A stretch of DNA of 64,000 nt from Candidatus Latescibacterota bacterium. Its GTDB lineage: Bacteria; Latescibacterota; UBA2968; UBA8231. Position 1 is the first letter of the stretch, and each line of letters begins with the position of its first letter. The translations under genes were made by a program, and so were the position numbers. A model generated the notes under the pieces. It saw only the letters and a program-made list of their open reading frames with translations, ran no database searches and was not told where the DNA came from. Below are positions 29,596-64,000 of the stretch, one piece after another. The DNA lies in contig CBDETY010000003.1 in NCBI GenBank assembly GCA_965243025.1, positions 32,001 through 96,000 on the forward strand. The letters are read 5' to 3'.

Positions 29596-29666
29596 AGCGG
29601 TCTGTCTGTCTGGGAGAAGAGGGCGGGTGCGACTATGATTCAACCTTTCGCGAGGCTGCGGAACCG

Positions 29667-29695
29667 AATATAAAAGGTCTTCCATGCCTATCCAG
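29667..29695 (-). promoter_or_regulatory. Putative promoter CTGGAT-N17-TATATT
   Basis: Same geometry as the elements at 37067-37095 and 57461-57489. Confidence 0.45.
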
Positions 29696-29735
29696 GCGCC
29701 CACGCCGGCCAAGCCCCGTTGCCAGGGAGAGACGT

Positions 29736-31607: not shown

Positions 31608-31662
31608 AGAGGCGGCCGCCCGGCAGTCCCTTGCCGCGTTTGCTTCTCCCTGCGAGTCGACA

Positions 31663-43751: not shown

Positions 43752-45227
43752 TCATCCGGGTCTACCCGGAAGAGAATCCACAAGCCGCAGGTCCCAGCGC
43801 ACCAGTTCTTCGGTCAGCTCCTGCCGTCTACCGCTGTGGGCCGGGTCGTTCGCCAGGTTCCTCAGCTCGTGCGGATCGGCCTTCAGGTCGTAGAGCTCCC
43901 GGGCGCCGTACGGATCCAGAACCAGCTTCCAGTCCCCCTTGACCACCATCTTCCACTTGCCGGTCTGGGTGACGTCGTTGAGCTCGTTCCAGGTCCCCAC
44001 CGACTTCAGGGTGAAGCTCCCCCCGCGCAGCGGCGGATCGTCCTCCGCTTCGTACGGCCTGCCCTCCACCCCGGCTTCGGCGTACATCGAGTCGAGCTCG
44101 GCCCCGTCGCCGGCGCCGCTCAACAGCGGCCACAGGTCCCTCCCCTGCACCCCCGGGGGCGGCTCCAGCCCGAGCATGCCGCACAGCGTCGGCAGCACGT
44201 CGACCAGGGAAACGTGCGCCATGCCGGGCTGCGGGCGCGGCGCGATCCCAGGCCCGCGCCAGACCATCGGGATCCGCACCAGGTTCTCCGGCAGTCCGAC
44301 CCCTTTGCGGTGCAGGCCGTAGTCGCCGGCGTAGTCCGCGTGATCCGAGGTGAAGAGCACCGCCGTGCTCTCGCTCAGGCCGCTCCGGTCCAGGAAATCC
44401 AGCAGGCGCCCCACCTGGTCGTCGATCAGCCGCAGCATGCCGCAGTAGTTGGCGCGGTAGCGGGGGACCAGCCGCTCCGGATCGGGGAAGTACTCCTCGA
44501 TCAGCCGCCGCGAGAAGCGCCACTGGAAGTTCCGCCCTTCCAGGACCTCCCTCCCAGCGGCCGGGGGCGGGATCTCACCGGGAGGAAACAGGCTGAAATA
44601 CGGCTCCGGAACCTGGTAGGGACTGTGCGGCGGGTCGATGCCGAGGAACAGGTAGAACGGCTCCCGGCGCATCTGTTCGAGCAGCTCGATGGCCGCGTCC
44701 ACCACCCGCACCGGCTGCTGCAACCGCGCGGGAAAAGGAGTCGGCTCTTCCGAGATCCCGTGGGCGAGGCCGCGCATCCAGCGCCAGTACTCCTCCTGCC
44801 GGGCGCGAAGCGCCGGGTCGGGATGGGCCATCTCGTCGACGTACCAGCCGTACATGTGGAAGTGGTAGCCAGTGGCGGGGGGACTGCACGACCCGCGCAG
44901 GGCCCCTTGCCGGTAGGTGTGGTCCTTGCCCACCAGCGCCGTGGTGTAACCGGCGTCGTTGAGGAGATCGACGAGGTCGCGCTCGTACCGGGGTTCCGCC
45001 ATGGTGTGGATCCTGACGCCGTGGGCCCGCGGGAAGCGCCCCGTCAGGTAGCTGCAGCGGGCGGGCAGGCACAGCGGAACCGGAGTGTAGGCCTTGCGGA
45101 AGCGGACGCCTTCGGTCGCCAGCGCGTCGACGCGCGGCATGGTGTCGAGCGGAAAACCCTCTCCGGCCATGAAGTCCGGCCGCTGCTGGTCGGTCATGAC
45201 GACGATGATGTTGCGAGGTGAGCTCAT
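43752..45227 (-). CDS. Cys-type (formylglycine) sulfatase
   Basis: RNIIVVMTDQQ, CLPARCSYLTG, VGKDH, PPHSPY and TSDHAD; no signal peptide. Confidence 0.92.
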   Translation of the reverse strand: MSSPRNIIVVMTDQQRPDFMAGEGFPLDTMPRVDALATEGVRFRKAYTPVPLCLPARCSYLTGRFPRAHGVRIHTMAEPRYERDLVDLLNDAGYTTALVGKDHTYRQGALRGSCSPPATGYHFHMYGWYVDEMAHPDPALRARQEEYWRWMRGLAHGISEEPTPFPARLQQPVRVVDAAIELLEQMRREPFYLFLGIDPPHSPYQVPEPYFSLFPPGEIPPPAAGREVLEGRNFQWRFSRRLIEEYFPDPERLVPRYRANYCGMLRLIDDQVGRLLDFLDRSGLSESTAVLFTSDHADYAGDYGLHRKGVGLPENLVRIPMVWRGPGIAPRPQPGMAHVSLVDVLPTLCGMLGLEPPPGVQGRDLWPLLSGAGDGAELDSMYAEAGVEGRPYEAEDDPPLRGGSFTLKSVGTWNELNDVTQTGKWKMVVKGDWKLVLDPYGARELYDLKADPHELRNLANDPAHSGRRQELTEELVRWDLRLVDSLPGRPG

Positions 45228-45234
45228 ATCCCTG

Positions 45235-47268
45235 CTAGCCTCCGGCGGATCCCAAGGACAGCGCCACCACCGCCCAGAACACCTCCATGGCAAGGTGTCC
45301 GAGCGCCAGCCCCAGGAAGGCCGGCAGCGCCTTCTGATACAGCCGCACCCCGCCGTAGCGCAGCATCGTCGACTTGATCGCCCAGGCGATGAGCACCGAG
45401 GACCACAGTTTGTAGCCGAACCCGGTGCCGACCACGAAGCCGATCGGATGCAGCGGCCAGTGCGAGAACACCCGCCGCAGGACGGCGAGGGCGGCGGTTA
45501 CCGCGAAACCGATCCCCTCGAAGGCGTAGTTCAGCCAGGCCGCGGCCTGCGGTTTGTATGCCCAGTGGACGGTGTGATGCACCTCACGGCCGTGGTAAAA
45601 GGAGACTGCCGCGTACTGGTTGCCGCTCCCCATGTCCTGGAGCCCGTGGGTGTAGATCGCCGTCAACGAGGTCCAGAAGGCGATCGCCAGCCCCAGCGCG
45701 AAAGCCAGCACCAGCGCCAGGGTCATGCGGGGGGCCGGTACGGCGGCGGCCTGTCCCAACTTGTACGATTCGAAGAGGATCACCATCAACATGCCGAAAC
45801 CGCCGGCGCAGAGCATGTTGAGGTGAGAGAGGACCTGGTAGTCGGAGGCGGAGTAGATTGCCGGGCCGGTGCCGGTCGCCATGTAGATCAGGAACGGTAC
45901 CGGCAGCAGCTCGTAGGTGAACGGCACTCCAGCCTCGGCGCGCATGCGGGCGAAGGCCAGCGCCAGGAGCAGAAACAGCACGAAAAAGGCCAGTCCCCAG
46001 CCGATACCCAGGCCCGCCATGTGAGCCCAGATCACGCAGATGGCCAGGGCCCCGGCCAGCCCCCCGACCGTGAAACCCGCGGAGAATGGTTCCCCCTCTT
46101 CCCGTCCCGGGCGGGCTTGCCGGAATCTGAACGCTTTGCCGAGGAGTTCCCGCAGATGCGACCGGGCGCTCCAGACCATGAAGATGATCAGCACGTAGAT
46201 GCCGCCCTGGGCCTGGCTGCTGAAGAAGGGAAACTGCCTGGCGCCGGAAAAGAACATGAGCCGGTTCGCAGCGGTCATCTGGGACAGCCCGGTCAGCTCG
46301 GCACCGAGCAGTTGCAGACGGGTGAGCAGGAAAAAGAGCCAGACGCTCAACAGCGTATTCAGCGGGAACAGGTAGGCGATGCCGATCATGAGCGGGGAGA
46401 CCGAAAACAGGAAGGGATCGGAAGGCAGCATGGTTTCCAGGGTCATGGCGCTCCACGGTTTCTCCACCAGGAAGTTGGCGAAGTCCAGCTCCAGGCTCAC
46501 CGGGGTCAACGCCTGCACGTACCTGGTCAGCCCGTTGTAACCCAGAAGCAGCGCCGATACCGCAAAGCCGGTCCACGTCAACCGGTTGCGCAGCAGTCCG
46601 CCCGGGGCGGCCCCCGGGGCCTCGCCGCCGATGAGGGCCAGCGGCAGCTGCGCTATCGGGAAATTGAGGTTCTCTGTCTCCGTCCACTGCCGCCGCAGCA
46701 GGATCACCACGCACAGCATGGCGAAGAACAGACTGCAGATCAGCACCGACCAGGCGGCCAGCGGCAGCAGCCAGGCCCCCCAGGGCACGCCCCCCCCGGT
46801 GGGCGCGAAAAACTCGTCCACGGCCCCGGGGTCGGCGGCGGCGGGACCGAACCAGGCGGGGATGTATTTCAGGAAAGGGTAGTACCACGTCCCCGGTTCG
46901 GCGTACATGAAATGGTTGGTGACCATTCCGGGCAGCAGCCGGTGCACCAGACCGGTTCCCGACAGCAGGGAGCCCACGCAGGCCATGCAGTAGATGACGG
47001 CCAGTTCGCCGCGACTCAGCCGCAGCCACGGCAGCAGTCCCCGCAACCCGGACAGCAGCAGCACGAGCAGGCCCAGCAGGAAGACCGGGCCCGCCGGCGG
47101 GGCCCACTCGTTCAGGTCGGGACCGCCCAGGGCCAGCGTCACCCGCTGCAGGAGCAGGCTGATCAGCGCGATCGCCCCGGCCCCGAGCAGGAACGATTTC
47201 AGCGTCAGCCCGCGGTCGACTGCCCCGCTGCTACTGTCGCGCCGATCGGTGCCGTGCGTCCTGGCCAT
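45235..47268 (-). CDS. Polytopic membrane protein, DUF6785/DUF6784-like (OPT-related putative transporter)
   Basis: Roughly 15 or more TM segments; LSRGELAVIY, LRRQWTETENLNFP, RMRAEAG, WPLHPIGF and LRYGGVRLY...PAFLG. Confidence 0.7.
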   Translation of the reverse strand: MARTHGTDRRDSSSGAVDRGLTLKSFLLGAGAIALISLLLQRVTLALGGPDLNEWAPPAGPVFLLGLLVLLLSGLRGLLPWLRLSRGELAVIYCMACVGSLLSGTGLVHRLLPGMVTNHFMYAEPGTWYYPFLKYIPAWFGPAAADPGAVDEFFAPTGGGVPWGAWLLPLAAWSVLICSLFFAMLCVVILLRRQWTETENLNFPIAQLPLALIGGEAPGAAPGGLLRNRLTWTGFAVSALLLGYNGLTRYVQALTPVSLELDFANFLVEKPWSAMTLETMLPSDPFLFSVSPLMIGIAYLFPLNTLLSVWLFFLLTRLQLLGAELTGLSQMTAANRLMFFSGARQFPFFSSQAQGGIYVLIIFMVWSARSHLRELLGKAFRFRQARPGREEGEPFSAGFTVGGLAGALAICVIWAHMAGLGIGWGLAFFVLFLLLALAFARMRAEAGVPFTYELLPVPFLIYMATGTGPAIYSASDYQVLSHLNMLCAGGFGMLMVILFESYKLGQAAAVPAPRMTLALVLAFALGLAIAFWTSLTAIYTHGLQDMGSGNQYAAVSFYHGREVHHTVHWAYKPQAAAWLNYAFEGIGFAVTAALAVLRRVFSHWPLHPIGFVVGTGFGYKLWSSVLIAWAIKSTMLRYGGVRLYQKALPAFLGLALGHLAMEVFWAVVALSLGSAGG

Positions 47269-47274
47269 GGCCGC

Positions 47275-50200
47275 TCAGATTCCCAGTACCGCGCGGGGGT
47301 CCCTGCCTGCCAGTCCGGCGGCGCGGCCCTCGTAGCCCTGCCGGGCTTCGTCGCCGATGGCGCGCCAGATCAGGAACTGCTTTCGCAGGTCGTTGAAGAA
47401 GGCATAGTTCTTGCGCAGCCAGCTTTCGCGGTCGCCGGAAACCCGGCTCGCCTGCACCTCGACCTCGTAGACGTCCTCCTGGCCGGGGACGGCCTGCAGC
47501 TCGAGCCGCTGGCTCACATTCAGGTCGAAGGGAGCCAGCCAGACCTGCAGGCCGACCGCGTGCACCGCTCCGCCGGGTGTGTCGAGGCGCTCGTAGCGGG
47601 CATCCCGGGTGTAGAAGGCGGCCCCCACGGTCTGCTCTTCGTGCAGGGCGAAATACTCCGTGAGGTAGGCCATCAGGCCGGCGACGTCCGCCTGCCGCAC
47701 GGTGACCGGGATCGTCATCGACAGCTCGTCTCCCACCGCCGGGGGCAGGATCCACTTGCGCTGCACCGCCGAGGCCGCAACCCGGAAGGCCAGGCTCGCC
47801 GGATACAGGCTGGAGAGCAGCACCATGGCCATCACCAGGGCGATGCTGTAGACGACCGACAGCGAGGAGTAGTTGAGGGTCAGCCCGGAAACCAGGTCGA
47901 AGGAAGAGACCACGGTCGACACCAGCTGGCCCGCCAGGTATCCCAGCACCGCTCCGAAACTCGCATACACCGCGGCTTCGGCGACGAACAGACCGGCCAC
48001 GTGCAGCGGCGACAGCCCCACCGCGGTGTAGGTGTTGATCTCCTCCCGCCGCTCGTACACGGAGCCCAGCATCGTGTTCAGCACGATCAGGGCCCCGATG
48101 ACCAGCGGTACTATGATGTTGCTCAGACCGCCCACCGACTGCAGATCCACCGCGTTCAGCAGGTAGCGCCGGCCATCGATGCCCGCGGTCATGTTGACCG
48201 CCAGCCCCGCCATCCAGTCCTCGATCGCCCTGCCGACGGCTGCGGCGCTGGCAAAGCCGATGGCGACGGAGCGGATGCTTCCCCCCCAGCGGCGCGCCAC
48301 CGCGTAGGGCACGACGACCGCCTGCTCGGCGGCGAGGTGGACGAAGCTGACCTCTTCTCCCGACAGGGCGCGCTCGGCGGCCCCCCCGGTCTTCTCCGGC
48401 GGCTGCGTGGCATCGGGATCCAGCGGCGTCAACGGCGCGTTGCCGAGGTCCAGCAGATTGTCGAACAGCCCTTCGTCCAGCAGCCCGACGACGGTGAAGA
48501 CCTCCCCGGAGATCACCACCCGCGCGATACCCGCGTCGGCCGCCCCGATACGCAGCTGGCGCGCGAGGCGCAGCGGCAGGATGCAGACCTGCTCCTCGCC
48601 CGGCTCGAACCAGCGGCCGGCGTACAGGGCGCGCTGGGGGGCGGTCAGCGCCGCCTCCTGCGCCGTCAGTCCGAGGACCGCCATCGCCGTGCCGGCCCGG
48701 TCGCGCCGGTCCAGCCGTTCGACCCGGACCCTGCTCTGCGGCGCGACGCCCGCCACCCCCTTCGCCGTGCCGTCGAACCAGGCCCGCGGGCTCACGATCT
48801 GCTCCCGGAACTGGTTGGCGATGCCGGCATGGATCCCTTCGTTCACCGGTGCCCAGCCCACCTGCCGCACCAGCAGTCCGTCGTAGAGGGCAGGGCCCTG
48901 TGCCGGCACCTGGTTGAAGCCCAGGAAGGTCTTTACCGAGGTGAAACCCAGCACCGAGAACGTCACCAGGACGATCGTCGACATCGCCAGCAGGGTGCGC
49001 AGCGGCCGGCGCCGCATGTTGTTGATGCCCAGGTCGAAGGCGCTCCAGACGGCCCCCGAGCGGTCCATGTCCGCCCGGTGCACCCCGCCCACGCGGCTCA
49101 TCATCCTCCGGATCTGTCGCTGCATCCTGGTCAGACCGATGCGGATCACCAGTACGCTGAGGGCGAAGATGATGAAGCCGAGCAGGATGATGCCGGGGTT
49201 GAGCGCCAGGTCGAAGGCGGGGTGGACCCACCTCAGGATCCCGAAGGCCGCCAGGAAGAACGCGGCAAGTCCCAGCAGCTGCCGCCTGATGGTCGCCCCG
49301 GCCAGCAGCAGCCGTTCGCCGAACCAGGCGAAGGGGATCAGCAGCGCCATGTAGAAGAGCACTCCCTTGACCACGTCGCCGGTCGTGCCGTGCACGTCGA
49401 GGTAGGCTCGGCTGGCGTAGGTCCAGGAGCGGCGGGCCATCTCGCCGAAGCGGTCGTACTCCTTCTTCTCCAGCGCCTTCCCGGCTTCGTCCAGGTAGTC
49501 CAGCGCCCGGTCGTGCAGGTTCCGCAGGCGCTCGTTGCGCACCCCGTGCCGCCGCAGGTTGTCGATGCGGCTGTCGTTCAGCAGACTGATGTCCCTCGCC
49601 ACCCGGTAGGCGGTATGGGTCAGGCGCGTCTGCCGGGAGACCGGGAAGCCCTCCCCGATCGCCGTTTCAGGAGAGCTGTTGAGGAGCAGAAGGCGGTTGC
49701 CCAGGCCGTAGAATCCCCAGGTCATGGCGATCTTCATCCGCGTCCCGGGCGGGGCGAAGACTGTCACGCAGGGTTCGACCAGCGAATCCAGTTTCTTCTG
49801 CACCCATCTGGCATTGTAATCGAAACGAACCCCCGCCTCGCGGTCGTTATACGGATACAGCGGCAGGGTGTAGCCGAATTCGACCGGCTGCACCTCGCGC
49901 CCCTCCTCCAGCACCGACAGGCTGTTCAGCACATCCAGATAGCGGTGGTCGAGCGCTTCGAAGAGGGTCATCCCGTCGGCCTCGAAGAGCACGACGCTGA
50001 CTTCTTCGCGCTTGCGGTCCAGATCGAGCTCCAGCGGGTAGCGCTCGGCCCCGTTGACCCCCAGGTCCGCGACATGGTCGACCGAACCATCGACGGGATC
50101 GAGGTGATACGCTTCCAGCTTCACCGGCACCATTCCGGAAAAGGAGGCGGCGCGGATTACCCCGGGCATGAGGAAACGGCCGTGGCGGTCGGCCATGGCC

Positions 50201-52284
50201 AGGAACTCGGTGCGCACCCCGACGAGGGTCTTGGCGGGCAGGCGCAGGCGCACCAGGGAATGGGGTACCGGCGCGTCAGGGACGAAGCCGGTGTGCGGAT
50301 CGAAGTAGACGGTCCGGCCTTCGACGTAGCCGAAGAAGTCGGACTCGCCGCGGGCGATCATGGCGATCCGCGGATCGTCGGCGGCTTCGCGCAGGAACGG
50401 CAGGAGGAACTCCGCCTGGCGGCCCAGGCGCGAAAGGTCGAGCCCGGCGGCGCGGTCCAGGGGCGTGTCGAAGGCGGAACGGGTGTCCGCCAGGGTGGCC
50501 AGGGTCGCGGTGAGGAACCCCCAGGCGTTCAGGGGGCCGCCGTTGAACGGGAGGGGCTCGTGGTGGCCCCCCAGGACCAGCCGCCCGCGCTCGAACTGGA
50601 TGCCGTCGAAGAACAGCGGCGGTTGGCCGAAGCCGGCGGCCGCCAGTGTTTCCTCGACCCGTTTGCCGGCCGCCATGACCCGTTCGTAGAACGGGGAATC
50701 GCCATGGGTATTGCGGTTGTGGGCCCAGCCCGGCCCGAAATCATAGAAGCCGCCGCCCCCGAAGATGCCGACCCGGTCTCCCCCCGCCGACAGATCCAGC
50801 CCCAGGCAGGCGTCGAGGCGGTAGCGGTCGAGCACCGCCAGAAACCGGCCCTGCCCATCGACGACACGCAGCTTCTGCCGGAGATCCCTCATCTCCTCCG
50901 CCAGGCGCCGGCGCAGCACTTCCACCAGGGCGGGTGAGCGAAACAGGGACTCCATCTCCGCGGCGGTTTCGATCCAGCGCAGGGGGCGCGCCACCTCGAG
51001 CATGGCTTCCAGGCGAACGCGTTCGGCTTCCTCCAGCTCCCCTTCGAGCCTGTTTTCCTGCCCGGCAACAACGCGGGCGGCGTTGTCGGCGAGCTCTTCG
51101 ACGAGGCGGGGGAGGCTCTCCGTCCCCGGCGGCAGGGAACCGCCATCCTCCAGATAAGCGGTGAACTGCTCCAGCAGGCGCAGCCGCCCGGTGAGGCGGC
51201 TACGGCGCTGCGCCAGCCCTCGCTGCCCTCCGTCCATCAGGGCAACCAGCTGGCGCATGCCGATCAGCGCCTGGAAGTGGCCGCCGCTGGCGACGAAAAC
51301 CACGGTGCGCGCCGGCGGCCGGGCGGCAAACTCCCGGGCGGCCTCCAGCAGCACCGCCACACCCGACGCCGCCCCGGCCCCGGGAGCACGGGCCGGCACC
51401 ACCGAGGCGGCGTCGTAGTAGGCCTCCAGCACGAGGGCGTGGTCCCTGAGCTCGGGGTCGCTCCCCTCCACGACGCCGAGGATGTGGCGGCCAAGGGCGT
51501 TCGCCCAGTCCATGCGGGCGGTGAGATGGACCGGCTGGCCGAGGTGGTTTTTCAGGGTTTCCCCGGCCCGGCGCGGCACCCAGAACCGCGGCAGGTCGGC
51601 CGGCACCGAGAGGAATTTCTGTTCGGCCTCGGTGCGGTTCGGCTTTTCGGGCTCCAGAAACAGGACCGCCGAGGCCCCCAGGTCGAAGGCGTTTATCCAG
51701 TTCATCCCGGAATCGAACTCCATCAGCACCAGCTGCCCGGCGACGTCGAGTCCGTTGAAAGCCGACAGCTCGCCATGGCCGCCGTAGACCAGCCGGCCGC
51801 TGATGCCGCCCGGAGGCAAGGTGGGCGTGCGCACCAGGTTGGGCCACAGGCAGAACAGCTCGACCGCCGGACCGTCCGGCTGCACCACCAGGCGCGCGCC
51901 CCGGTCGAGCGGCACCGGCAGCTCGAACGGCATGGCGGTCACCGACTGCAGGCCGATCCGGCGGAACCGGTCTTCGATCCAGGCGGCGGCGCTGTCAGCG
52001 CCGGGATAGCCGGTTACGCGGGAAGGGTAGCCGGAAAGGGTCGCGATCGCGCGCCGCAGGCGCTCCAGGTCGACGCCGCTCCTGGCGGCGGAGCCGGCGT
52101 CGGCGGAAATGCGCGGCGCAGCGGTATCCGGGAAGGACCGGAAGGAAAACGGGAAATCGGCGAAGTAGAAGTGGAGAAGCGATGCGAGGGCGGCTGCGGA
52201 CGCCAGCGCCGCGGGCCAGGCCCATGGGAAACCCGCCGGCGGGCGCTGCGGATCGTCCCCTTCCCGGGATCCGGAGTTGTGCAC
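47275..52284 (-). CDS. 1669-aa membrane protein: PA + degenerate M28 peptidase domain, central TM bundle, FtsX/MacB-type permease C-terminus
   Basis: SRVTGYPG, PA motif GRLVYGG...VAGQLVL, M28-like SGVAVLLE, NMRRRPLRT and FtsX motif VYERREEI...AVGL. Confidence 0.75.
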   Translation of the reverse strand: MHNSGSREGDDPQRPPAGFPWAWPAALASAAALASLLHFYFADFPFSFRSFPDTAAPRISADAGSAARSGVDLERLRRAIATLSGYPSRVTGYPGADSAAAWIEDRFRRIGLQSVTAMPFELPVPLDRGARLVVQPDGPAVELFCLWPNLVRTPTLPPGGISGRLVYGGHGELSAFNGLDVAGQLVLMEFDSGMNWINAFDLGASAVLFLEPEKPNRTEAEQKFLSVPADLPRFWVPRRAGETLKNHLGQPVHLTARMDWANALGRHILGVVEGSDPELRDHALVLEAYYDAASVVPARAPGAGAASGVAVLLEAAREFAARPPARTVVFVASGGHFQALIGMRQLVALMDGGQRGLAQRRSRLTGRLRLLEQFTAYLEDGGSLPPGTESLPRLVEELADNAARVVAGQENRLEGELEEAERVRLEAMLEVARPLRWIETAAEMESLFRSPALVEVLRRRLAEEMRDLRQKLRVVDGQGRFLAVLDRYRLDACLGLDLSAGGDRVGIFGGGGFYDFGPGWAHNRNTHGDSPFYERVMAAGKRVEETLAAAGFGQPPLFFDGIQFERGRLVLGGHHEPLPFNGGPLNAWGFLTATLATLADTRSAFDTPLDRAAGLDLSRLGRQAEFLLPFLREAADDPRIAMIARGESDFFGYVEGRTVYFDPHTGFVPDAPVPHSLVRLRLPAKTLVGVRTEFLAMADRHGRFLMPGVIRAASFSGMVPVKLEAYHLDPVDGSVDHVADLGVNGAERYPLELDLDRKREEVSVVLFEADGMTLFEALDHRYLDVLNSLSVLEEGREVQPVEFGYTLPLYPYNDREAGVRFDYNARWVQKKLDSLVEPCVTVFAPPGTRMKIAMTWGFYGLGNRLLLLNSSPETAIGEGFPVSRQTRLTHTAYRVARDISLLNDSRIDNLRRHGVRNERLRNLHDRALDYLDEAGKALEKKEYDRFGEMARRSWTYASRAYLDVHGTTGDVVKGVLFYMALLIPFAWFGERLLLAGATIRRQLLGLAAFFLAAFGILRWVHPAFDLALNPGIILLGFIIFALSVLVIRIGLTRMQRQIRRMMSRVGGVHRADMDRSGAVWSAFDLGINNMRRRPLRTLLAMSTIVLVTFSVLGFTSVKTFLGFNQVPAQGPALYDGLLVRQVGWAPVNEGIHAGIANQFREQIVSPRAWFDGTAKGVAGVAPQSRVRVERLDRRDRAGTAMAVLGLTAQEAALTAPQRALYAGRWFEPGEEQVCILPLRLARQLRIGAADAGIARVVISGEVFTVVGLLDEGLFDNLLDLGNAPLTPLDPDATQPPEKTGGAAERALSGEEVSFVHLAAEQAVVVPYAVARRWGGSIRSVAIGFASAAAVGRAIEDWMAGLAVNMTAGIDGRRYLLNAVDLQSVGGLSNIIVPLVIGALIVLNTMLGSVYERREEINTYTAVGLSPLHVAGLFVAEAAVYASFGAVLGYLAGQLVSTVVSSFDLVSGLTLNYSSLSVVYSIALVMAMVLLSSLYPASLAFRVAASAVQRKWILPPAVGDELSMTIPVTVRQADVAGLMAYLTEYFALHEEQTVGAAFYTRDARYERLDTPGGAVHAVGLQVWLAPFDLNVSQRLELQAVPGQEDVYEVEVQASRVSGDRESWLRKNYAFFNDLRKQFLIWRAIGDEARQGYEGRAAGLAGRDPRAVLGI

Positions 52285-52296
52285 CTCGACAAAGGC

Positions 52297-52737
52297 TCAG
52301 GGTCCGACTTGCACCGAGTCCGGCTCGGACGGCGGCCCCTGGAAGAGGTTCCGGTCGTAGGCGCGGACGCGGGCCAGCAGCCAGGCGCCGGTCTCTCCCT
52401 CATCGGCGGCGATACCGTCCGTGTCGAGACCGCTCGACGTGAAGCTGCGCACGTCGGCTCCCTCGACGGCGCGCTCGTACACGGGGTTGCCGCGGTGGCT
52501 CAGGGTGACGAGGAACCCGTGCGCGTCGGAAACCGCTTCCATCTCCCACGTCACCCGCACCTCGCCCGTTTCCGTCCACGCCGCCTGCACCCGGACCGGG
52601 GGCTCGAGATTCTGGTGGAACGAGGTGACCGGCTCGTGGTCCTTGTCGCAGCCGGCGAGCAGCGCGATAGCGGCCAGCGCCGCCGGAACGGCTCGCCGCA
52701 GCAGGGCGCCTGCGCGCGCAATTGCGCAACCAGCCAC
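52297..52737 (-). CDS. Lipoprotein with an FN3/Ig-like domain
   Basis: Lipobox LLAGC; PVRVQA...VTW...VRAYD...SEP pattern. Confidence 0.65.
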   Translation of the reverse strand: MAGCAIARAGALLRRAVPAALAAIALLAGCDKDHEPVTSFHQNLEPPVRVQAAWTETGEVRVTWEMEAVSDAHGFLVTLSHRGNPVYERAVEGADVRSFTSSGLDTDGIAADEGETGAWLLARVRAYDRNLFQGPPSEPDSVQVGP

Positions 52738-54032: not shown

Positions 54033-54044
54033 ATCCCCTGCCCT

Positions 54045-55310: not shown

Positions 55311-55408
55311 GCGAACTCTGACCGGTGACTGTCTTGGCGCTGGCGCGGGAACAGGTCGGCGGAACAGCCGCTGAAAGCGGTCGCCGCTTTCCGTTCCGGA
55401 GGAAATGG

Positions 55409-55450
55409 GGTCCGGGTGCGCGCCCCGCAGCTGAGACGCGCACCCGGACC
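55409..55450 (-). terminator. GC-rich hairpin (terminator or mRNA-stabilising stem)
   Basis: Perfect 14-bp inverted repeat GGTCCGGGTGCGCG/CGCGCACCCGGACC just after the stop at 55473, with only a weak U-tract; a second hairpin lies at 55373-55391. Confidence 0.6.
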
Positions 55451-55472
55451 TGGAGCCGGAGAGTCTGCCTGC

Positions 55473-57392: not shown

Positions 57393-57460
57393 GGTACTCT
57401 CCTTTGTCGAAAGGAAGTGGGAGAAACACTCGATAAATGCCGAATGCTCGATGGAGCCCG

Positions 57461-57541
57461 ATAATAGCCAATCTACCTGTCAAATCCAATAATAATCGAT
57501 TGCAATAATTGCTTGACACCCCACATGGGCACGTCCATCGT
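57461..57541. promoter_or_regulatory. AT-rich divergent promoter with palindromic operator-like sites
   Basis: Minus strand TTGGAT-N17-TATTAT (57489-57461); plus strand TTGACA at 57513-57518; palindromes AATCGATT (57494-57501) and GCAATAATTGC (57502-57512). Confidence 0.55.
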
Positions 57542-57649
57542 ATTCCGACTTCACCGCTCCGGCCAGCGAGGTCGAAACAGCTCGATGAAGGTCTCTGACA
57601 AGCGGACATCCGGAGCACCTGCTCCAGGCACTGTCGCCAGGAGGTCGCA

Positions 57650-59755
57650 TTGGTAGCGGCATGCGGACTCCGGCCGGCTCTGATCGCCTCCCTCGCGGCG
57701 GCATTCACCGTCGCCGCCAGTGCTGCGGCGGACGGCGAGATGCTTTCGATCGACCGCTGGCCGACAACGACCTGGTACCGCTACGATTTCACAACCGGAT
57801 CCGGGGGAGGGGGCACCATCCGCCTCACCGCCGTGGACCGGTACGTGCTTTTCCTCAACGGCCAGAGGGCCGGCGACGGTGCGGACTGGACCGCGCTCGA
57901 GGAGCATTCCGTCGACCTCGAGGACGGCGACAACCACCTGGGGCTGGTGGTCGACAGCGACGGGGACGGCTCGGGCGCCGGCCTGATGGTCGAAATCGTC
58001 GCCGGGAACGAGCAGTTCGTCAGCACCGTGACAGGGCCCTGGTACTGGAGCGGCCTGGAGCCGGAAGACGATGCCTGGCTGACCGACCGCGACATCGCCA
58101 ACGAACCGTCCTGGCAGCGGGTGCAGACGGCGACGTTCGACCGGTCGCGGATCTCCGGCTTCCAGAGCCTGGAGGTCGAGCCGGTCGCCGGCTTTCCCGG
58201 CGGCGTCGAGACCAGCCCGCATGGGGAAGGCGCCCTGCAGCTGCGCCAGATCGACGGCGAGAACCTCGCCGCTGGGGTGTTTGCCGCCCCGGCCGAGATA
58301 ACCGACGGCGATCTCAAGACGGCGTGGAACCTGTCGACGGGGGCTCTCAACGACTTCGCCCGTGTCGACCTGGGCCGCCGCCGGAGCGTCAACCGGGTGC
58401 GCGTGATCACCGAGGGGGACGACGCCGAAGAGCTCGAAGGCAACTCGCTGAGAGGCTACTCGGTCCAGATCAGCGACGACCGCTTCCGCTGGACGGAGGT
58501 GGGCGCCCTGTTCGGGATCACCGATTACCGCGAGACCGAGGTCGGCTTCCCGGCCGTCACCACGCGCCATGTGAGGATCGTGGTGACCGAAGTAGCCCGC
58601 GGCCTGTCCCCGAGCGTCGCCGAGGTGGAGGTCTTCGGCACCGGTTTCGCCGAAAGCGCCAGCTATCTTTCGCCCCCTCTCGAGTTCGACGCACCGGATT
58701 CCCCGAAGAACTTCGGCCTCGTCACCTGGGAGGCGGAGGTGCCGGAGCGTACCGGTCTCAGCCTGCAGTTTCGCAGCGCCGGAGCGGACATGGAGTGGAG
58801 CGACTGGAGCCGCCCCTATGCGGAGAGCGGCGTCTTCGCCGGTGTTCCCGAACCCCGGACACTGCTGCAGTACCGGGCGGGCTTCTCGACCAGCGACAAC
58901 AGCCGTACTCCGGCTCTGCGCTCGCTGCAGCTGCAGTTCGACGAAGGGCCGCTCGCCGCCGGCGGGGCGTCGGGCTCGATCAGTCCCCGCTCCGTCCCGA
59001 TGGGGCGGGATACCACGTTCGTCTACGAGGTGAACCTGGATTTCTCGGGGGACGAAGCCGGGGTGGAGAAGCTGTCCATCGACGTCCCCTCCCGGGCGGG
59101 GGCGGCCGGCAGCGTCACGGGGCCGGATGGCCAGGCCCTGCCGGTTGACAGCCGTTTCGATGCCGCAAGCCGGCAGTTCGTCGTGACCTTCACTCCTCCG
59201 ATCGCGGCAGAGGACGGGATTACCTCCATGCGTATTCCCTTCACCACGGCCCAGTTTCTGCCGCGGTTCGATTTCCGGGCCCGTCTCTTCGCTCCCGGCA
59301 GCGACAATCCGCTGGAAGCAGCCGAAGACCGCCAGGTGGATGAAGACACGGGGGAAGTTCTCAGATCGTGGGTGGTCTCCGTCTCCGAAGTGGTCGACGA
59401 GCTGCTCGTCCGCGCCGAGGCCAGGCCTCGCGTCATCACTCCCAACGCCGATGGCCGCAACGAATTCACCGTCATCGAACTGGTCATCAGCAAGCTCGCC
59501 GAGCCCCAGGGCGTCGAGATCCGCCTCTTCGATCTCGGCGGCCGGCTGGTGCGCGCCCTTCCGCCCGCCCGCCTGAGCGCCGGCACCTACCTCCATCCCC
59601 GGGACGCGGCGCTGGCCAGGCAGACTCCCGGGTTCTGGGACGGCGCGGATCAGGGCGGCAATCCCGTACCCCCGGGCAACTACATCTATCGAGTCGAGAT
59701 CGATCTCGGCGACCGTACCGAGGTCGGCATCGGCACCGTAGCGGTCGTCTACTAG
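57650..59755 (+). CDS. Secreted protein with F5/8 (discoidin/CBM32-like) domain and C-terminal FlgD-Ig / type-B CTD-like domain
   Basis: GGAGG RBS, signal peptide, ITDGDLKTAW...VDLG...YSVQISDD...W...RHVRI...EVEVFG, and ITPNADGRNE...WDGAD...PGNYIYRV. Confidence 0.78.
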   Translation: MVAACGLRPALIASLAAAFTVAASAAADGEMLSIDRWPTTTWYRYDFTTGSGGGGTIRLTAVDRYVLFLNGQRAGDGADWTALEEHSVDLEDGDNHLGLVVDSDGDGSGAGLMVEIVAGNEQFVSTVTGPWYWSGLEPEDDAWLTDRDIANEPSWQRVQTATFDRSRISGFQSLEVEPVAGFPGGVETSPHGEGALQLRQIDGENLAAGVFAAPAEITDGDLKTAWNLSTGALNDFARVDLGRRRSVNRVRVITEGDDAEELEGNSLRGYSVQISDDRFRWTEVGALFGITDYRETEVGFPAVTTRHVRIVVTEVARGLSPSVAEVEVFGTGFAESASYLSPPLEFDAPDSPKNFGLVTWEAEVPERTGLSLQFRSAGADMEWSDWSRPYAESGVFAGVPEPRTLLQYRAGFSTSDNSRTPALRSLQLQFDEGPLAAGGASGSISPRSVPMGRDTTFVYEVNLDFSGDEAGVEKLSIDVPSRAGAAGSVTGPDGQALPVDSRFDAASRQFVVTFTPPIAAEDGITSMRIPFTTAQFLPRFDFRARLFAPGSDNPLEAAEDRQVDEDTGEVLRSWVVSVSEVVDELLVRAEARPRVITPNADGRNEFTVIELVISKLAEPQGVEIRLFDLGGRLVRALPPARLSAGTYLHPRDAALARQTPGFWDGADQGGNPVPPGNYIYRVEIDLGDRTEVGIGTVAVVY

Positions 59756-59801
59756 ACGGGCAGACTGCAGGGATCGGGCTGGCAGACTGGACGGATTCGC
59801 C

Positions 59802-62474
59802 ATGAAACGGTACCGGGCGGGGATTCTGGCGGCAGGGGGCTGGGCAGTGCTTTTCAGTCTCCTTCACGACAGCGTCCATGCCCAGTTCCTCAACCGGCAG
59901 TTCTATCCGCGCTGGCAGCAGGAGAAGTACGAGAACCTCGCCACCATCGGCTACCGCGGCTACGACATCGACAGCGAGCAGCGCACCTTCGATGCCTTCG
60001 GCATGTACATGCTGGACGGTGTCGAGGTGTTCCGCCTCGAGGAGTTTCGCAGTATCGACCCCTTCGACGGCAGCCTCCTGTTCAAGGATTTCGCACTGAC
60101 CAACCTGTTCCAGAACCTGGTGATATCCAGCGACAGCTACCGCACCTGGTCCAGCAGACTGACGATCGGCAGGGCCGTGGAGTCCACCTTCACACCTCTG
60201 ACCCTCGACGTCGCCCGTCTCAACGGCGTTCGCTGGGACGCGGCGACCCGGCGCAACCGCTTCGCGGTGGTGGCCTCGCGCGTGTCCGACCCCATCCTCT
60301 TCGGAGGGCTGCGCAGCCGGGAGTTCGCCAACTACCTCTACGGGGGCCGCTGGGAGGGGACCCTCGGCGACGTGCTCACCTTCGGAGCCTCCTACGTCAA
60401 TCTCCACTACATCGACAGCCTGGCCGGCAGCAGGAGGAGCTCGCAGAAGGGCAACCTTCCCAACGACCTGCAACCCCCCGAGACCCTGTTCGTCCTGGTC
60501 TGCGACGACTCGCCCGACGACGGGTCCGGCGGCAGGGTGTACGACATGGTGATGCAGGTGGACGGCGTTTCCCGCGCTGACCTGACCCCGGAAATCCGAC
60601 GGGTGGAAGACATCGAGCACGAGCGCGAGCTGACCGTGGAAGAGGTCTCCCACCTGCGGCGGCGGCGGTCGTGGTTGAGCACTCTGCTGCCCTGGACGTC
60701 GATGCGAAACCTCATCGACGATGCCCCGGTCGTTTCGCCGAACGGACAGGAATACCTCGAAGCGAGCGGCACGGATGTTCTCGTCTACCGCTTCGACGTT
60801 CCCCGCGGCGCCTCCGCGGTGGAGTTCGAGGCGCTCGTCTCCCACGACTACAGCATCGACGTCGCGGCCGAGCTGCCCCGGCGAGGCGTTGTCGGCATCA
60901 CCTGGGACGACTGGCACAACGTGCTGCGGGCGCCCGGCAATCCCGGGGCCGGGGATGCCAACCCGCAGAGGAAGAGATTCTCCTACTCCGCCTCAACCGG
61001 GATCGCCACCTACGGAGCCGATATCGATCTGGCGCTGTACGGTTTTGCTCTCGAGGGGGAGTACGCGCGCAATTTCGACTTCTCCCAGTACCCGGCATTC
61101 GACGGCCGCCGGTTCGAAGGACAGCGCGATGCCTGGTACCTGACCCTGGAGCGGCCGTTGGGAAAATGGCGGCTGGGCATGGAACTGTTCGACATGCCGG
61201 CGACTTTCTCGACGGATTTCACCTACTGGCGGCAGGATATCAACCAGTTCGACGTCTACCGCATGGTGGAGGACAACGACGACCGCGACCAGTGGCCGGA
61301 CAACTGGGAGCACTGGGAGCCCCTCGATTCCCGATACACCCTGCAGTCGGTAGGCCGCCCCACCCCGGAAGCCAACCGCAACCTGGTTCCGTCTCCCGAC
61401 GTGGCGATCGGTTTCGGGGTCTTTCCGGGACTGGATGAGGACGGGGACGGCACGCCGGACACCAACGTCAACGACAACGAGCTGCCCGACTACCTGGAGC
61501 CCTTCCTCATGTACCACGTCGAGCCGGAGGACTTCGTGTTCGGAGACGACTTCAACAACAACGGCATCGTCGACGTCCGGGAAAACGACAACCTGCCCGA
61601 CTATCCCTACGAGCTCGACTCGGGAGGGCCGCACACCTTCGCCGCGTACCGTCCCTCGCCGGCGTTGGACATGACCGCCGGCTGGTACGGTATCGCACAG
61701 ACTGCGGGAGGGGGCGAAAACCGGGCGGCCTATCTGCGGCTGCGCCACCACCGGAAGCTGTCTTCGACGAGCCACCTCGAGTTCAACTACCTGGGCAGGA
61801 GGGTGCGCGACGACATCCCTTCGAGCACCTACGAGTTCAAGGTCGATCCACGAGTGCTGGGGAACTTCTCGATCCATGCGCGGCCCGATCCGCTGGAGAT
61901 GCGCAACAGCCTCGTCAACACCCTGTTCGCCAGGGCCCGGTCGCACCCGGTTTCCTCTCTGCGCCTGGAGACCATTTTGCGCTGGGAGCAGAACAACCAG
62001 CTCGAGGAGTCCGGGCAGGCGCGGGCGATCCAGGAAGAGCGCACCCTCCGTGGGTGGAGGGCGGTCGCCAAGGCCGACTACCTGCGGAAATGGCGCTCCT
62101 TCTCGCTCATGCCGATGGTCAAGTTCACCACGGCGCGAAAGACCGCCTCGGATGCCGAAGAGGCACTGGTTCGGGATTACACCCTCTTCCCGATCATCCG
62201 CCTCGACTACCATGCATCGCCGCGAACCGTGGTGCGGACCGGGGTCCAGGGATTTCCGGTCCTGTTCAAGCACCGCTTTCGCAGCGGCACGCCCGAGGTC
62301 GACGACTTCGACGCCGAACACTTCATCTTCACCGTGCAGACGCGGGACAACTACATCGGCTACGACGCGAGCTTCCTGATGGGCTACAAGGCAAGCCGGT
62401 TCGAATTTCCGGGAGACAGCTCGGCCGGGCCGCGAACCACGAGCGAGGTCTTCCTTCACATGCGGGTCGAATGA
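59802..62474 (+). CDS. Large secreted protein, putative outer-membrane beta-barrel with acidic Ca-binding-like loops
   Basis: Signal peptide, amphipathic beta strands, DxDxDG-type motifs (DNDDRD, DEDGDG, DFNNNG). Confidence 0.6.
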   Translation: MKRYRAGILAAGGWAVLFSLLHDSVHAQFLNRQFYPRWQQEKYENLATIGYRGYDIDSEQRTFDAFGMYMLDGVEVFRLEEFRSIDPFDGSLLFKDFALTNLFQNLVISSDSYRTWSSRLTIGRAVESTFTPLTLDVARLNGVRWDAATRRNRFAVVASRVSDPILFGGLRSREFANYLYGGRWEGTLGDVLTFGASYVNLHYIDSLAGSRRSSQKGNLPNDLQPPETLFVLVCDDSPDDGSGGRVYDMVMQVDGVSRADLTPEIRRVEDIEHERELTVEEVSHLRRRRSWLSTLLPWTSMRNLIDDAPVVSPNGQEYLEASGTDVLVYRFDVPRGASAVEFEALVSHDYSIDVAAELPRRGVVGITWDDWHNVLRAPGNPGAGDANPQRKRFSYSASTGIATYGADIDLALYGFALEGEYARNFDFSQYPAFDGRRFEGQRDAWYLTLERPLGKWRLGMELFDMPATFSTDFTYWRQDINQFDVYRMVEDNDDRDQWPDNWEHWEPLDSRYTLQSVGRPTPEANRNLVPSPDVAIGFGVFPGLDEDGDGTPDTNVNDNELPDYLEPFLMYHVEPEDFVFGDDFNNNGIVDVRENDNLPDYPYELDSGGPHTFAAYRPSPALDMTAGWYGIAQTAGGGENRAAYLRLRHHRKLSSTSHLEFNYLGRRVRDDIPSSTYEFKVDPRVLGNFSIHARPDPLEMRNSLVNTLFARARSHPVSSLRLETILRWEQNNQLEESGQARAIQEERTLRGWRAVAKADYLRKWRSFSLMPMVKFTTARKTASDAEEALVRDYTLFPIIRLDYHASPRTVVRTGVQGFPVLFKHRFRSGTPEVDDFDAEHFIFTVQTRDNYIGYDASFLMGYKASRFEFPGDSSAGPRTTSEVFLHMRVE

Positions 62475-64000
62475 TGCCCCCCCTGATCCTCCTGATCCTG
62501 TGGCTCGCCGCCCTTCCCGGCTCGAGCGAGGCGACGGACCAGCTCCTCTACAAGGAGTCGCCCCGGTACGAGAACTACGGCGAGCAGGGATACCGCCATT
62601 ACGGCCGCGGTGTCCTGGGGCGGTCGACGAGGCCCCTCTTCGACCGCCTGGGGGATCAGCTGATGAACGGCGTCGAGATCTACTCCCTCGGGGAAAGCCG
62701 GGTCGAGGCGGAACTTGTTCCCCCCGGCAGCCGCCTGAACAAGCACTTCTTCTACTACAGATATCTCAATGGCCTGGCCATAGCCCAGGACAGGTACAAC
62801 GGGTGGACCACCCGCCTGCTGATCGGCGACCGCATCCGCACCCACTTCACGCCTCTCACTCTCGACCTGGCGGCTCTCAACGGCATCCGCTGGGACGTGG
62901 AGGGCAGCGGTCACCGCCTGTCGCTGGTGACCTCGCGCCGCGACTTCCCGCTCTGGACCCTGCCGGACGTGGACCAGAACCAGGAGCTCAGCTTCTCCAC
63001 CTACCTGCTGGGGGGGCACTGGGAAAGAGACTGGGGCCCCTTGAAACTGGGCGCCACGTTCACCAACCAGCTCAGGGTGAACACGCTGCTGGGCACCGAG
63101 GGAAGCAGCATCAAGGGAACCACTCCATTCACCATCACAACGGTCCAGATGCTCGTCGTCAAGGTCGCCAACGCCGACGAACGCATGCACCACAACGCCC
63201 GCGTCTACGGTATCGACCTTGCGCTCAACGGGGAAGCGACGGATATCGAACCGGTGGTGACCCGTCACGACGCCAACTTCGTCAACCCGCGGTTCGAGAA
63301 CTTCGACGAGTTCTTTCCCCTCGGGAGAACGGTCCCTCCCTTCGTCGACTTCATCGAGGGGGACTTCCCTGCGGAAAGTCCCGATTCCCGGGGCGGAATT
63401 CAGGTGAACGACAGCGAATACCTGCTCTACTGGTTCGAGCTGCCGGAAGATGTCGTGGTTCAGCAGGCCAGCTTCGACGCCCTGGTCGCCAACAATTACG
63501 AGATCTCGGTCTCCGAGGTCTTCGTCCGCAACCCCCTTGCGGGCAGGCGCGACCCGGGGCAGCGGAACCGCGCCACCTACTTCGCCCGCATAACCGGAAG
63601 CGACGAACCGGCCCTGGATGGATCGAACCTGCGGCGGGTGCGCTTCGACTACGGCCGGCAGACGGGCAACATGGTCTTCGGGGCCAACGCGCAAACCGCG
63701 TTCAAGGGGTTTCTGTTCCGGGGCGAATTCGACGTCAACCTCAACCACCTCCAGTACCCCGACCTCGAGGGCGCACGGCACCGGCGCGAGGCGCTGGCGT
63801 ACTTCGTCAACCTCGAGAGGGAGCTGGGACCCCGGGTATCGATCGGGGGCGAGTACTTCAACGTCGACCCGGACTACAGCACCAGCATAACCGTACAGAG
63901 CGAAGGCTACGCGGCCTACACCGACCTGCCCGTCCAGCCGTATGTCAACGAGATCCACCACGGGTTTCCCGGGGATTACAACAACACCATCGAGATGGAT
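62471..64000 (+). CDS. Paralog of 59802-62474, 3'-truncated by the window edge (absent from the ORF track)
   Basis: ATGA overlap; MMPPLILLILWLAALPGSSEA signal peptide; YENYGEQGYR vs YENLATIGYR and FTPLTLDLAALNGIRWD vs FTPLTLDVARLNGVRWD. Confidence 0.75.
   Translation, partial: MMPPLILLILWLAALPGSSEATDQLLYKESPRYENYGEQGYRHYGRGVLGRSTRPLFDRLGDQLMNGVEIYSLGESRVEAELVPPGSRLNKHFFYYRYLNGLAIAQDRYNGWTTRLLIGDRIRTHFTPLTLDLAALNGIRWDVEGSGHRLSLVTSRRDFPLWTLPDVDQNQELSFSTYLLGGHWERDWGPLKLGATFTNQLRVNTLLGTEGSSIKGTTPFTITTVQMLVVKVANADERMHHNARVYGIDLALNGEATDIEPVVTRHDANFVNPRFENFDEFFPLGRTVPPFVDFIEGDFPAESPDSRGGIQVNDSEYLLYWFELPEDVVVQQASFDALVANNYEISVSEVFVRNPLAGRRDPGQRNRATYFARITGSDEPALDGSNLRRVRFDYGRQTGNMVFGANAQTAFKGFLFRGEFDVNLNHLQYPDLEGARHRREALAYFVNLERELGPRVSIGGEYFNVDPDYSTSITVQSEGYAAYTDLPVQPYVNEIHHGFPGDYNNTIEMD

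Follow-up and report, generated by a model that had tools for sequence, protein, structure and literature searches.

In the window analyzed here, a stretch of 64,000 nucleotides from a Candidatus Latescibacterota bacterium (GenBank assembly GCA_965243025.1, contig CBDETY010000003.1, positions 32,001 to 96,000), two divergent gene strings are found between position 43752 and the right-hand end. Two genes of the leftward string, one coding for a giant protein with M28 and FtsX domains (hereafter BIG) and the other for a polytopic membrane protein of the DUF6785 superfamily, represent a strongly conserved, undescribed inner-membrane pair. The pair is probably an importer. Our preferred reading, to which we assign a probability of roughly 40%, is a lineage-specific operon around this widespread pair, which would import a sulfated solute in this organism. 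An earlier interpretation of the DNA alone, referred to here as the sequence-only reading, had proposed one uptake machine for sulfated glycans. Its inner-membrane pair and its barrels stood, a conserved single machine did not, and the eleven-gene hypothesis was narrowed to a two-gene core that is directly testable.

Because the G+C content of the window is 67%, gene models were picked by G+C at the third codon position (GC3), and they were then scanned against Pfam and NCBIfam. The gene content of both strings agreed with the sequence-only reading and is listed below.

43752-45227, minus strand: sulfatase (Pfam)
45235-47268, minus strand: DUF6785 + DUF6784 polytopic membrane protein, 677 aa (Pfam)
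47275-52284, minus strand: BIG, our name for the PA/M28-FtsX protein, 1669 aa (Pfam M28 and FtsX)
52297-52737, minus strand: small predicted lipoprotein, 146 aa (LLAGC lipobox)
52737-54032, minus strand: TonB-C-like protein, 431 aa (NCBIfam AgmX/PglI C-terminal domain)
54045-55310, minus strand: DUF4159 protein, 421 aa (Pfam)
55473-57392, minus strand: FlgD-Ig protein, 639 aa (Pfam and NCBIfam)
57393-57649, no strand: divergent intergenic spacer, 257 nt, G+C 0.525
57650-59755, plus strand: F5/8 type C (discoidin) protein, 701 aa, secreted (Pfam)
59802-62474, plus strand: 890-aa protein, modelled as a beta-barrel (structure model and Foldseek)
62471 to beyond the window end (64000), plus strand: paralogue of the 890-aa protein (frame fixed by GC3 and translation)

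In transcription order, the genes of the minus strand are separated by 162 nt after the FlgD-Ig gene and then by 12, -1, 12, 6, and 7 nt, in agreement with the earlier claim that no gap from the DUF4159 gene to the sulfatase gene exceeds 12 bp. The 162-nt gap (55311-55472) has a G+C content of 70% and contains two G+C-rich inverted repeats that lack a T-run; possibly, termination or attenuation here separates the FlgD-Ig gene from the genes that follow it. An AT-rich divergent promoter had been suggested between the two strings. The 150-nt windows at 57376-57525 had the lowest G+C of the 64 kb (0.44 vs about 0.67), which supports the first part of this description; the consensus promoter scan of the spacer gave 1 site vs 1.1 expected by chance, and the terminator scan was likewise at chance level. 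The absence of a known import set also held, as no gene model between 43.7 and 64 kb matched the SusC/SusD, Plug/TonB-receptor, solute-binding, or ABC ATPase families of Pfam and NCBIfam, and no SusC-like transporter or SusD-like lipoprotein was matched in the remainder of the window.

The BIG-DUF6785 pair and its conservation

Hydropathy suggests that BIG, a bitopic-plus-polytopic protein, begins with an N-terminal transmembrane (TM) segment, which is followed by an ectodomain (about 920 aa), extra TM helices (residues 970-1055), an FtsX unit, and a tail. The ectodomain comprises a PA/M28 aminopeptidase-like head followed by a region of about 600 aa without family assignment, the FtsX unit is of the MacB/LolC type (TM 1094-1123, a loop of about 257 aa, TMs 1381-1500), and the C-terminal tail of about 170 aa is conserved. 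The approximately three extra TM helices are among the most conserved columns of the BIG alignment, some of them invariant. Pfam matches were obtained for FtsX (PF02687, E 1.4e-14, residues 1392-1501) and Peptidase_M28 (E 3.3e-6), while PF12704, the MacB periplasmic domain, is annotated on many BIG homologues and had no Pfam match in the window BIG. When a 25-sequence profile was compared with the Protein Data Bank (PDB), the first 330 or so positions matched 2ek8 (E 2.5e-22) and YwaD (6hc6, E 3.3e-18) and, more weakly, nicalin, the transferrin receptor, and nicastrin, and positions of about 1180-1360 matched MacB (5lil, E 5.3e-13) as well as YtrF, LolF, and LolC. A total of 138 homologues were found, and the proteins of the family are 1500-1700 aa in size.

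In the alignment of the BIG head to 2ek8, three motifs were replaced (SHHDS by AYYDA, GANDDASG by GAG-AASG, and GAEENG by GGHFQA), and the family consensus carries the same replacements (AYYD ... GHFQ). The corresponding motifs of 2ek8 (H-x-D, D-D, and E-E) we take to be the zinc ligands and catalytic glutamate of M28. Judged by this alignment, the M28 ligands are lost in BIG. Since they are replaced, the head is likely to be a binding module at most, which would bind and not cut.

The partner of BIG matched the Pfam families DUF6785 (E 1.2e-104) and DUF6784 (E 2.9e-26). Its AlphaFold2 (AF2) model, built on a 20-sequence alignment, had a predicted local distance difference test score (pLDDT) of 81.0 and a predicted TM-score (pTM) of 0.87. 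Two PDB structures matched this model in Foldseek at E<=0.001, and both were barley YS1 (7wst and 7wsr, E 2.4e-10, TM-scores 0.66/0.74); the next match had an E value of 0.014. The protein thus models as having the OPT/Yellow-Stripe transporter fold. Its identity to YS1 is 13%, the DUF6785 family profile had no match among PDB sequences, and OPT (PF03169) gave no Pfam match to the window protein even at E<=10, although PF03169 is annotated on 2 of 49 homologues. A fold match to YS1 with neither a profile match nor an OPT match in the window protein suggests a very distant OPT-fold protein. In many loci, BIG is directly followed by a polytopic protein of 660-800 aa without a Pfam family, designated C1. 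When aligned by hhalign, C1 and DUF6785 matched with a probability of 96.7% (E 3.2e-10, 579 columns), by which C1 is a distant DUF6785 homologue. Our literature search found no paper on DUF6785 or DUF6784 and nothing for the combination of FtsX, M28, and DUF. As far as the retrieved sources were accessible, OPT family plus FtsX gave just an unrelated transporter census, and DUF4159 just the Pfam paper.

The conservation of the pair was assessed by scanning genome contigs with the BIG alignment, in a bacterial collection of one genome per species and with neighbourhoods centred on BIG alone. Relatives of BIG were encoded by 452 stretches, and 80 loci with 32-40% identity were kept, from Armatimonadota, Gemmatimonadota, Latescibacterota, Omnitrophota, and several candidate phyla. 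BIG was present in the gene calls of 77 of these loci and was lost through the GC3 filter in L039, L064, and L070. According to the gene calls and BLAST clustering, C1 was the first gene after BIG in 51 loci and the second in 3, and DUF6785 occurred in 29 loci; when the window proteins were compared with all open reading frames (ORFs) of the 80 loci by phmmer (E<1e-3), DUF6785 was matched in 30. DUF6785 and/or C1 lay within three genes of BIG in 69 of the 77 loci. For the 52 loci in which BIG is flanked by 2.5 kb or more in each direction, the count was 50, the exceptions being L021 and L049. Together with the OPT fold, these results are in line with the inner-membrane translocator of the sequence-only reading.

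A FastTree phylogeny was calculated for 74 loci and the window, leaving out L039, L064, L070, and three loci with BIG calls shorter than 1300 aa. Four gene arrangements were distinguished in this tree, and the window BIG joined the last of them with full local support.

DUF6785-BIG: Armatimonadota
Small FtsX-ATPase-BIG-C1: Armatimonadota and WS1
BIG-C1-unknown-PqqD: Gemmatimonadota, Latescibacterota, Omnitrophota, and others, some with small FtsX and ATPase downstream
BIG-DUF6785-C1: a deep clade

In the largest clade, the string of BIG, C1, a 336-aa unknown protein, and a PqqD-like protein recurs (L006, L011, L016, L020, L022, L030, L034, L057, and others), which hints at a peptide-related role there. 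A genome can have two BIG paralogues: L021 and L030 share a contig, and L045 and L059 were obtained from the same isolate. L079, labelled Vermiphilus sp., clusters tightly with Omnitrophota BIG proteins, so its label or bin is doubtful.

Other recurrent neighbours of BIG were an ABC ATPase (22 loci), a 236-aa FtsX protein (19 loci), and the PqqD-like and 336-aa proteins (17 loci each). For Pfam scans of the neighbours, one representative per BLAST cluster was taken from ORFs of at least 110 aa within four genes of BIG (63+135+21 proteins), and the remaining neighbours were mixed, including RelA, RecD2, flagellin, Lgt/LspA, LptFG, and tRNA synthetases. The 236-aa FtsX protein has no large loop. 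It stands with the ABC ATPase beside BIG in L002, L003, L007, L012, L017, L027, L037, L038, L044, and L054, and also in L041 and L066, an arrangement that points to an asymmetric LolCDE-like assembly in these clades.

Such neighbours are relevant to a different explanation, according to which BIG is a mechanotransmission device like FtsEX, LolCDE, or MacB in envelope upkeep, activating or positioning periplasmic enzymes or else extracting or exporting a molecule, with the OPT-fold partner serving it and the sulfatase a passenger. The likeness of BIG to MacB, LolC, LolF, and YtrF, the presence of the ATPase within three genes of BIG in 16 of the 77 loci and of the small FtsX gene in 19 loci, the spread of the family over many phyla, the occurrence of two BIG paralogues in a genome, and the envelope-biogenesis neighbours (Lgt/LspA in 4 loci, LptF/G in 4, and signal peptidase I in 5) are consistent with such a device. 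In addition, the fusion of FtsX to a peptidase domain that is catalytically dead is reminiscent of FtsEX, which drives the degenerate EnvC. However, the window operon contains no ATPase, the constant partner of BIG shows a secondary-importer fold, the spacing to the putatively cytoplasmic sulfatase resembles translational coupling, and the BIG of the sister clade is preceded by a gene for a TonB-dependent receptor-like protein, which is an uptake protein. On balance, a mechanotransmission role seems rather unlikely.

In that sister clade (L039, L045, and L070), three genes precede BIG in all three loci with enough upstream sequence. The product of the first, about 1000 aa in length, resembles TonB-dependent receptors (CarboxypepD_reg, with weak Plug and weak SusC/RagA and heme-receptor matches), that of the second is an 840-aa protein with a C-terminal sorting domain (CTD), and that of the third is a PorV/PorQ-family barrel (E 2.5e-53); L051, a fourth sister locus, retains the PorV end. 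Compared with this lineage, in the window the sulfatase takes the position of C1, which is missing, and the upstream genes and the kind of barrel across the spacer are different. With TonB-dependent and PorV proteins there and the 890-aa barrels here, outer-membrane proteins adjoin the pair in two lineages of the clade. Genes for Nramp (in L039) and for an aminotransferase like SufS/PvdN are also present in the sister loci. The proteins of L039, L045, L051, and L070 are about 80-94% identical, yet the labels of their records are Planctomycetota, Gemmatimonadota, Latescibacterota, and Gemmatimonadetes; at least some of the labels must be wrong.

Alternatively, the pair might import peptides or metal chelates, the dead head binding peptide N-termini and the sulfatase and lyase-like genes being unrelated. 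This possibility is suggested by the sole structural match of DUF6785, a metal-phytosiderophore transporter, by the aminopeptidase fold of the BIG head, by the sister loci with their weakly heme-receptor-like TonB-dependent receptor, Nramp, and aminotransferase genes, and by the PqqD-like peptide-binding protein at +3 of BIG in 17 loci. Nevertheless, gaps of 6 and 7 nt tie BIG, DUF6785, and the sulfatase together, and no peptidase or metal-related gene was found in the operon by Pfam or NCBIfam. The identity to YS1 is only 13%, so the substrate of YS1 is not transferable to the DUF6785 protein. We therefore consider import of peptides or chelates unlikely.

Local genes of the operon and of the window

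The operon sulfatase matched Pfam Sulfatase (E 3.1e-41), and its NCBIfam arylsulfatase and choline-sulfatase matches were below the cut-offs. Its N-terminus reads MSSPRNIIVVMTDQQ, in which no signal peptide was seen. A CxPxR motif marks Cys-type sulfatases, and by the CLPAR motif read from the translation the protein is of this type. The small 146-aa protein has an LLAGC lipobox and no Pfam or NCBIfam match. It had been called an FN3 lipoprotein; the predicted lipoprotein part stood, and it may be FN3-like, as weak fibronectin matches (E 0.07-0.09) were all that was obtained for this domain.

Residues 295-373 of the 431-aa protein matched NCBIfam myxo_SS_tail, the AgmX/PglI C-terminal domain, with 65 bits against a cut-off of 40 (E 4.6e-18). 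Matches to tonB_Cterm (20.9 bits, below the cut-off of 27.1), Pfam TonB_C (E 0.039), and GltG (E 1.8e-9, 36.7 bits against an equivalog cut-off of 650) were weaker, so that the earlier label of TonB-C lipoprotein agrees best with a TonB-C-like domain of the AgmX/PglI type. The protein has a signal/lipobox-type N-terminus, a region of about 250 aa without assignment as its N-terminal domain, and no hydrophobic TM segment by hydropathy. It is a secreted protein or possibly a lipoprotein. Its 131 homologues are mostly from Latescibacterota and Gemmatimonadetes, and many of them have the N-terminal domain alone. The DUF4159 protein matched its Pfam family at residues 196-401 (E 2.4e-34) and PDB 4i66 (Hoch_4089, E 2.3e-10). 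It had been described as bearing a TonB-like anchor, and of this anchor only one TM segment (30-51) and a charged, proline-containing linker were found.

At the surface end of the strings, the secreted FlgD-Ig protein matched FlgD_ig (E 3.1e-16) and passed the cut-off of the type IX secretion system (T9SS) type A tail (TIGR04183, 29.9 bits against 23). An 812-aa protein with VIT and von Willebrand A domains (4298-6736, minus strand) also ends in a FlgD-Ig tail, indicating that this type of tail is common to several secreted proteins of the organism. The discoidin protein matched F5_F8_type_C (E 2.3e-12), as claimed, and the FlgD part of its earlier description was reduced to a weak CTD-like tail, with CHU_C and FlgD_ig below the cut-offs.

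The proposed outer-membrane channels fared better. The 890-aa protein, which has an Asp-rich central segment, gave an AF2 model with a pLDDT of 81.3 and a pTM of 0.80, and all Foldseek matches of this model were outer-membrane barrels, first SlpA of Deinococcus (8ae1, E 6.2e-10) and then MtrB, LptD, TonB-dependent transporters, and porins, with low TM-scores of <=0.27. The 890-aa proteins therefore model as large outer-membrane beta-barrels. The two paralogues share 30% identity over 458 aa (E 2e-50). Their family has 465 representatives at E<=1e-3 and no name; in the Atlas it consists of unnamed clusters and is commonest in Latescibacterota.

In the phmmer comparison with the 80 loci, few of these local proteins recurred. 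The DUF4159 protein, the TonB-C-like protein, and the small lipoprotein were matched in none, the sulfatase in two (L019 and L049), the 890-aa barrel family in two (L021 and L005), and the FlgD-Ig and discoidin proteins in one (L021). Glycoside hydrolase (GH), polysaccharide lyase (PL), or carbohydrate esterase (CE) families occurred within four genes of BIG in 4 of the 77 loci (L068, GH130; L023, GH4 and NamZ; L049, heparinase II/III; L018, deacetylase). Outside the BIG-DUF6785 pairing, the expected co-occurrence of the components thus mostly failed, as did the expected linkage to carbohydrate-active enzymes and sulfatases. L021 has a BIG gene of another clade, without a DUF6785 partner, and divergent from it runs a single string in which two ExbD genes are combined with genes for homologues of the FlgD-Ig protein, the discoidin protein, and both barrels. 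Flanked in this string by the ExbD genes on one side and the FlgD-Ig-like gene on the other, a small lipoprotein gene of L021 (7991-8524) has a homologue at 29143-29712 of the window (minus strand, tblastn E 1e-20), 26 kb from the operon.

The L021 string speaks for the larger proposal that all eleven genes form one trans-envelope machine for sulfated glycans, with binders, channels, a TonB-like coupler, and a translocator. Within the window, the tight gene spacing, the common divergent spacer, the barrel models, the discoidin and TonB-C-like domains, and the nearby sulfatase, GH, and lyase-like genes also point in this direction. However, the L021 BIG belongs to a different clade and lacks the partner, the local components are absent or nearly absent from the other loci as counted above, and a TonB-C-like homologue on the same 2.68-Mb contig as L016 lies outside the BIG locus. 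The 162-nt gap with its inverted repeats sets the FlgD-Ig gene apart. The energy-coupling module did not hold up: ExbB, ExbD, and MotA had no match among the window gene models, of which small ORFs were only partly scanned, and the N-terminus of the TonB-C-like protein offers no anchor of the TonB kind. A single eleven-gene machine is therefore very unlikely.

The remaining genes of the window that bear on sugar breakdown are located to the left of the operon.

26013-27551, minus strand: second sulfatase, no obvious signal peptide by eye
27523-29079, plus strand: GH32 (E 7.9e-41), no obvious signal peptide by eye
34626-35975, minus strand: GH28-like gene, no signal peptide by eye, 8 kb from the operon
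37190-40375 and 40408-43587, plus strand: tandem paralogues of about 1060 aa, converging on the sulfatase, no signal peptides

The tandem paralogues are 91% identical to each other and look like a recent duplication. They had no Pfam match even at E 10 and no PDB sequence match; a language-model search of the Atlas placed them near heparinase II/III-like clusters, which is a lead only. The GH28, GH32, and second sulfatase genes lie 8-18 kb from the operon. The earlier statement that the sulfatase stands beside lyase- and GH-like genes consequently holds for the sulfatase, while the lyase label is this language-model lead and the GH28 gene is at some distance. Neither the heparinase-like protein (one of the two copies was used) nor GH28 was matched in any of the 80 loci. 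From their N-termini, the operon sulfatase, the tandem paralogues, and GH28 are predicted to be cytoplasmic. Other sugar importer families had no match among the window gene models, and the two ATPases of the window lie within phosphonate and betaine transporter operons.

Other features were observed farther to the left. Two plus-strand genes (22866-25949 and 31576-34464) code for 1027- and 962-aa proteins with a spermidine-synthase-like domain, and the first of these also has MFS-like and TPR regions. At 9086-12379 (minus strand), an EgtD-like histidine-specific methyltransferase gene (E 6.4e-112) overlaps a glycine-betaine-type binding-protein/permease fusion gene at its end, together with the associated ATPase.

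A putative uptake route for a sulfated solute

In our preferred reading, BIG and its OPT-fold partner would act together as an uptake unit. The ectodomain of BIG would capture or gate a periplasmic solute, and the DUF6785 protein would carry it into the cytoplasm. In this organism, an organic solute that is sulfated is the probable cargo, with a sulfated uronate-containing oligosaccharide as the most plausible candidate. Once inside, it would be passed to the sulfatase, whose gene starts 7 nt after that of DUF6785, and to the neighbouring pair of heparinase-like proteins, all three of which have no signal peptide. Outside the conserved machine, the barrels and the CTD-bearing surface proteins (two of each), together with the DUF4159 protein, the TonB-C-like protein, and the small lipoprotein, would be local additions that may form the outer section of the route. 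We infer from these data a physical BIG-DUF6785 complex, the direction of transport, the substrate, and the link to the outer membrane, with the glycan nature of the substrate suggested by neighbours in a single genome.

This reading is favoured by the gaps of <=12 nt from the DUF4159 gene to the sulfatase gene, the latter being spaced as for coupled translation after the DUF6785 stop. The local context of a signal-less sulfatase, heparinase-like paralogues, GH28, and GH32 also fits cytoplasmic breakdown of an imported sulfated sugar. The conservation of the pair, the OPT fold of DUF6785, the outer-membrane neighbours in the sister lineage, and the lack of matches to other sugar importers among the window gene models count in its favour as well.

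Several observations weigh against it. The branch of the window BIG is long, and its placement with the BIG-DUF6785-C1 clade is marked as unsure by the tree program. The four sister loci represent one lineage, because they are about 80% identical to one another. With a sulfatase in 2 of 80 loci and GH, PL, or CE families in 4 of 77, the glycan part of the reading is drawn from this genome alone. To our knowledge, the substrates of OPT proteins are oligopeptides, glutathione, and metal chelates, not glycans. Known permeases of the MacB, Lol, and FtsEX type move substrates outward or activate enzymes of the periplasm, and they depend on an ABC ATPase; the ATPase (16 of 77 loci) and the small FtsX gene (19 loci) found beside BIG elsewhere are both missing from the window operon and, apart from the phosphonate and betaine ATPases, from the other gene models of the window.

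A bolder version can also be put forward, in which the pair is a new class of uptake system: a MacB-type mechanotransmission permease with a dead aminopeptidase receptor head would capture a periplasmic ligand and gate an OPT-fold symporter, spread over Armatimonadota, Gemmatimonadota, Latescibacterota, Omnitrophota, and other phyla. In the clade of the window, it would form the inner end of a route from outer-membrane barrels, TonB-dependent and PorV proteins in the sister lineage and the 890-aa family here, and would take up sulfated oligosaccharides in this organism without SusC/SusD. We regard this version as distinctly improbable.

If BIG and DUF6785 work as a unit, an OPT-fold carrier would be joined with a type VII ABC-like permease, two architectures that are normally independent. 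Such a unit would also give a first functional handle on DUF6785, DUF6784, the unnamed paralogous family, and the family of 1500-1700-aa proteins, and the preferred reading, if true, would point to a route of sulfated-sugar uptake for relatives of the FCB group outside Bacteroidota. The 452 places in which the BIG family was found belong for the most part to phyla in which cultured members are scarce or lacking.

Comparison with known systems

That the genes might match a known apparatus for secretion or gliding had been named as a possible counterargument. T9SS, Glt gliding, and a Bat-type aerotolerance cluster were considered as candidates and dropped, since single domains alone matched. The likeness to T9SS consists of the FlgD-Ig tail that passes the type A sorting-domain cut-off and the PorV/PorQ gene beside the sister-clade BIG; PorK/L/M/N, Sov/SprA, and PorU families were not matched among the window gene models. 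With TonB-ExbBD and with GltG/GltJ of Myxococcus, the 431-aa protein shares the AgmX/PglI (TonB-C-like) C-terminal domain. It differs from them by having no N-terminal TM anchor, and neither ExbB/ExbD nor AglRQS was matched in the window, nor was any other component of the Agl-Glt gliding machinery among its gene models.

The window is similar to the SusC/SusD polysaccharide utilization loci of Bacteroidota in the clustering of surface domains of carbohydrate-binding type, barrels, a sulfatase, and genes of glycan-degrading type. In contrast to those loci, it has no SusC/SusD, its nearby enzymes look cytoplasmic, its inner-membrane step would be neither MFS nor a binding-protein ABC transporter, and its gene set is not kept as a unit elsewhere.

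For the pair itself, the closest relatives are single families. The BIG head resembles M28 metallo-aminopeptidases in sequence, with the zinc-ligand and catalytic motifs replaced. The DUF6785 model shares its whole-chain fold with the OPT/Yellow-Stripe transporter YS1 of barley (7wst), and no other family was close; it differs in its low sequence identity, in the missing PF03169 match of the window protein, and in being always beside BIG in the loci examined, which form a BIG-centred set. Type VII ABC permeases (MacB, LolC/E/F, FtsX, and YtrF) share with BIG the FtsX TM bundle and the long loop after its first TM helix, and an ABC ATPase and a small FtsX gene adjoin BIG in a minority of loci. 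Unlike these permeases, BIG has no ATPase in the window operon. It is further distinguished by an ectodomain of about 920 aa with an apparently dead PA/M28 fold, about three extra conserved TM helices, a tail of about 170 aa, and a near-constant pairing with a protein of the predicted OPT fold.

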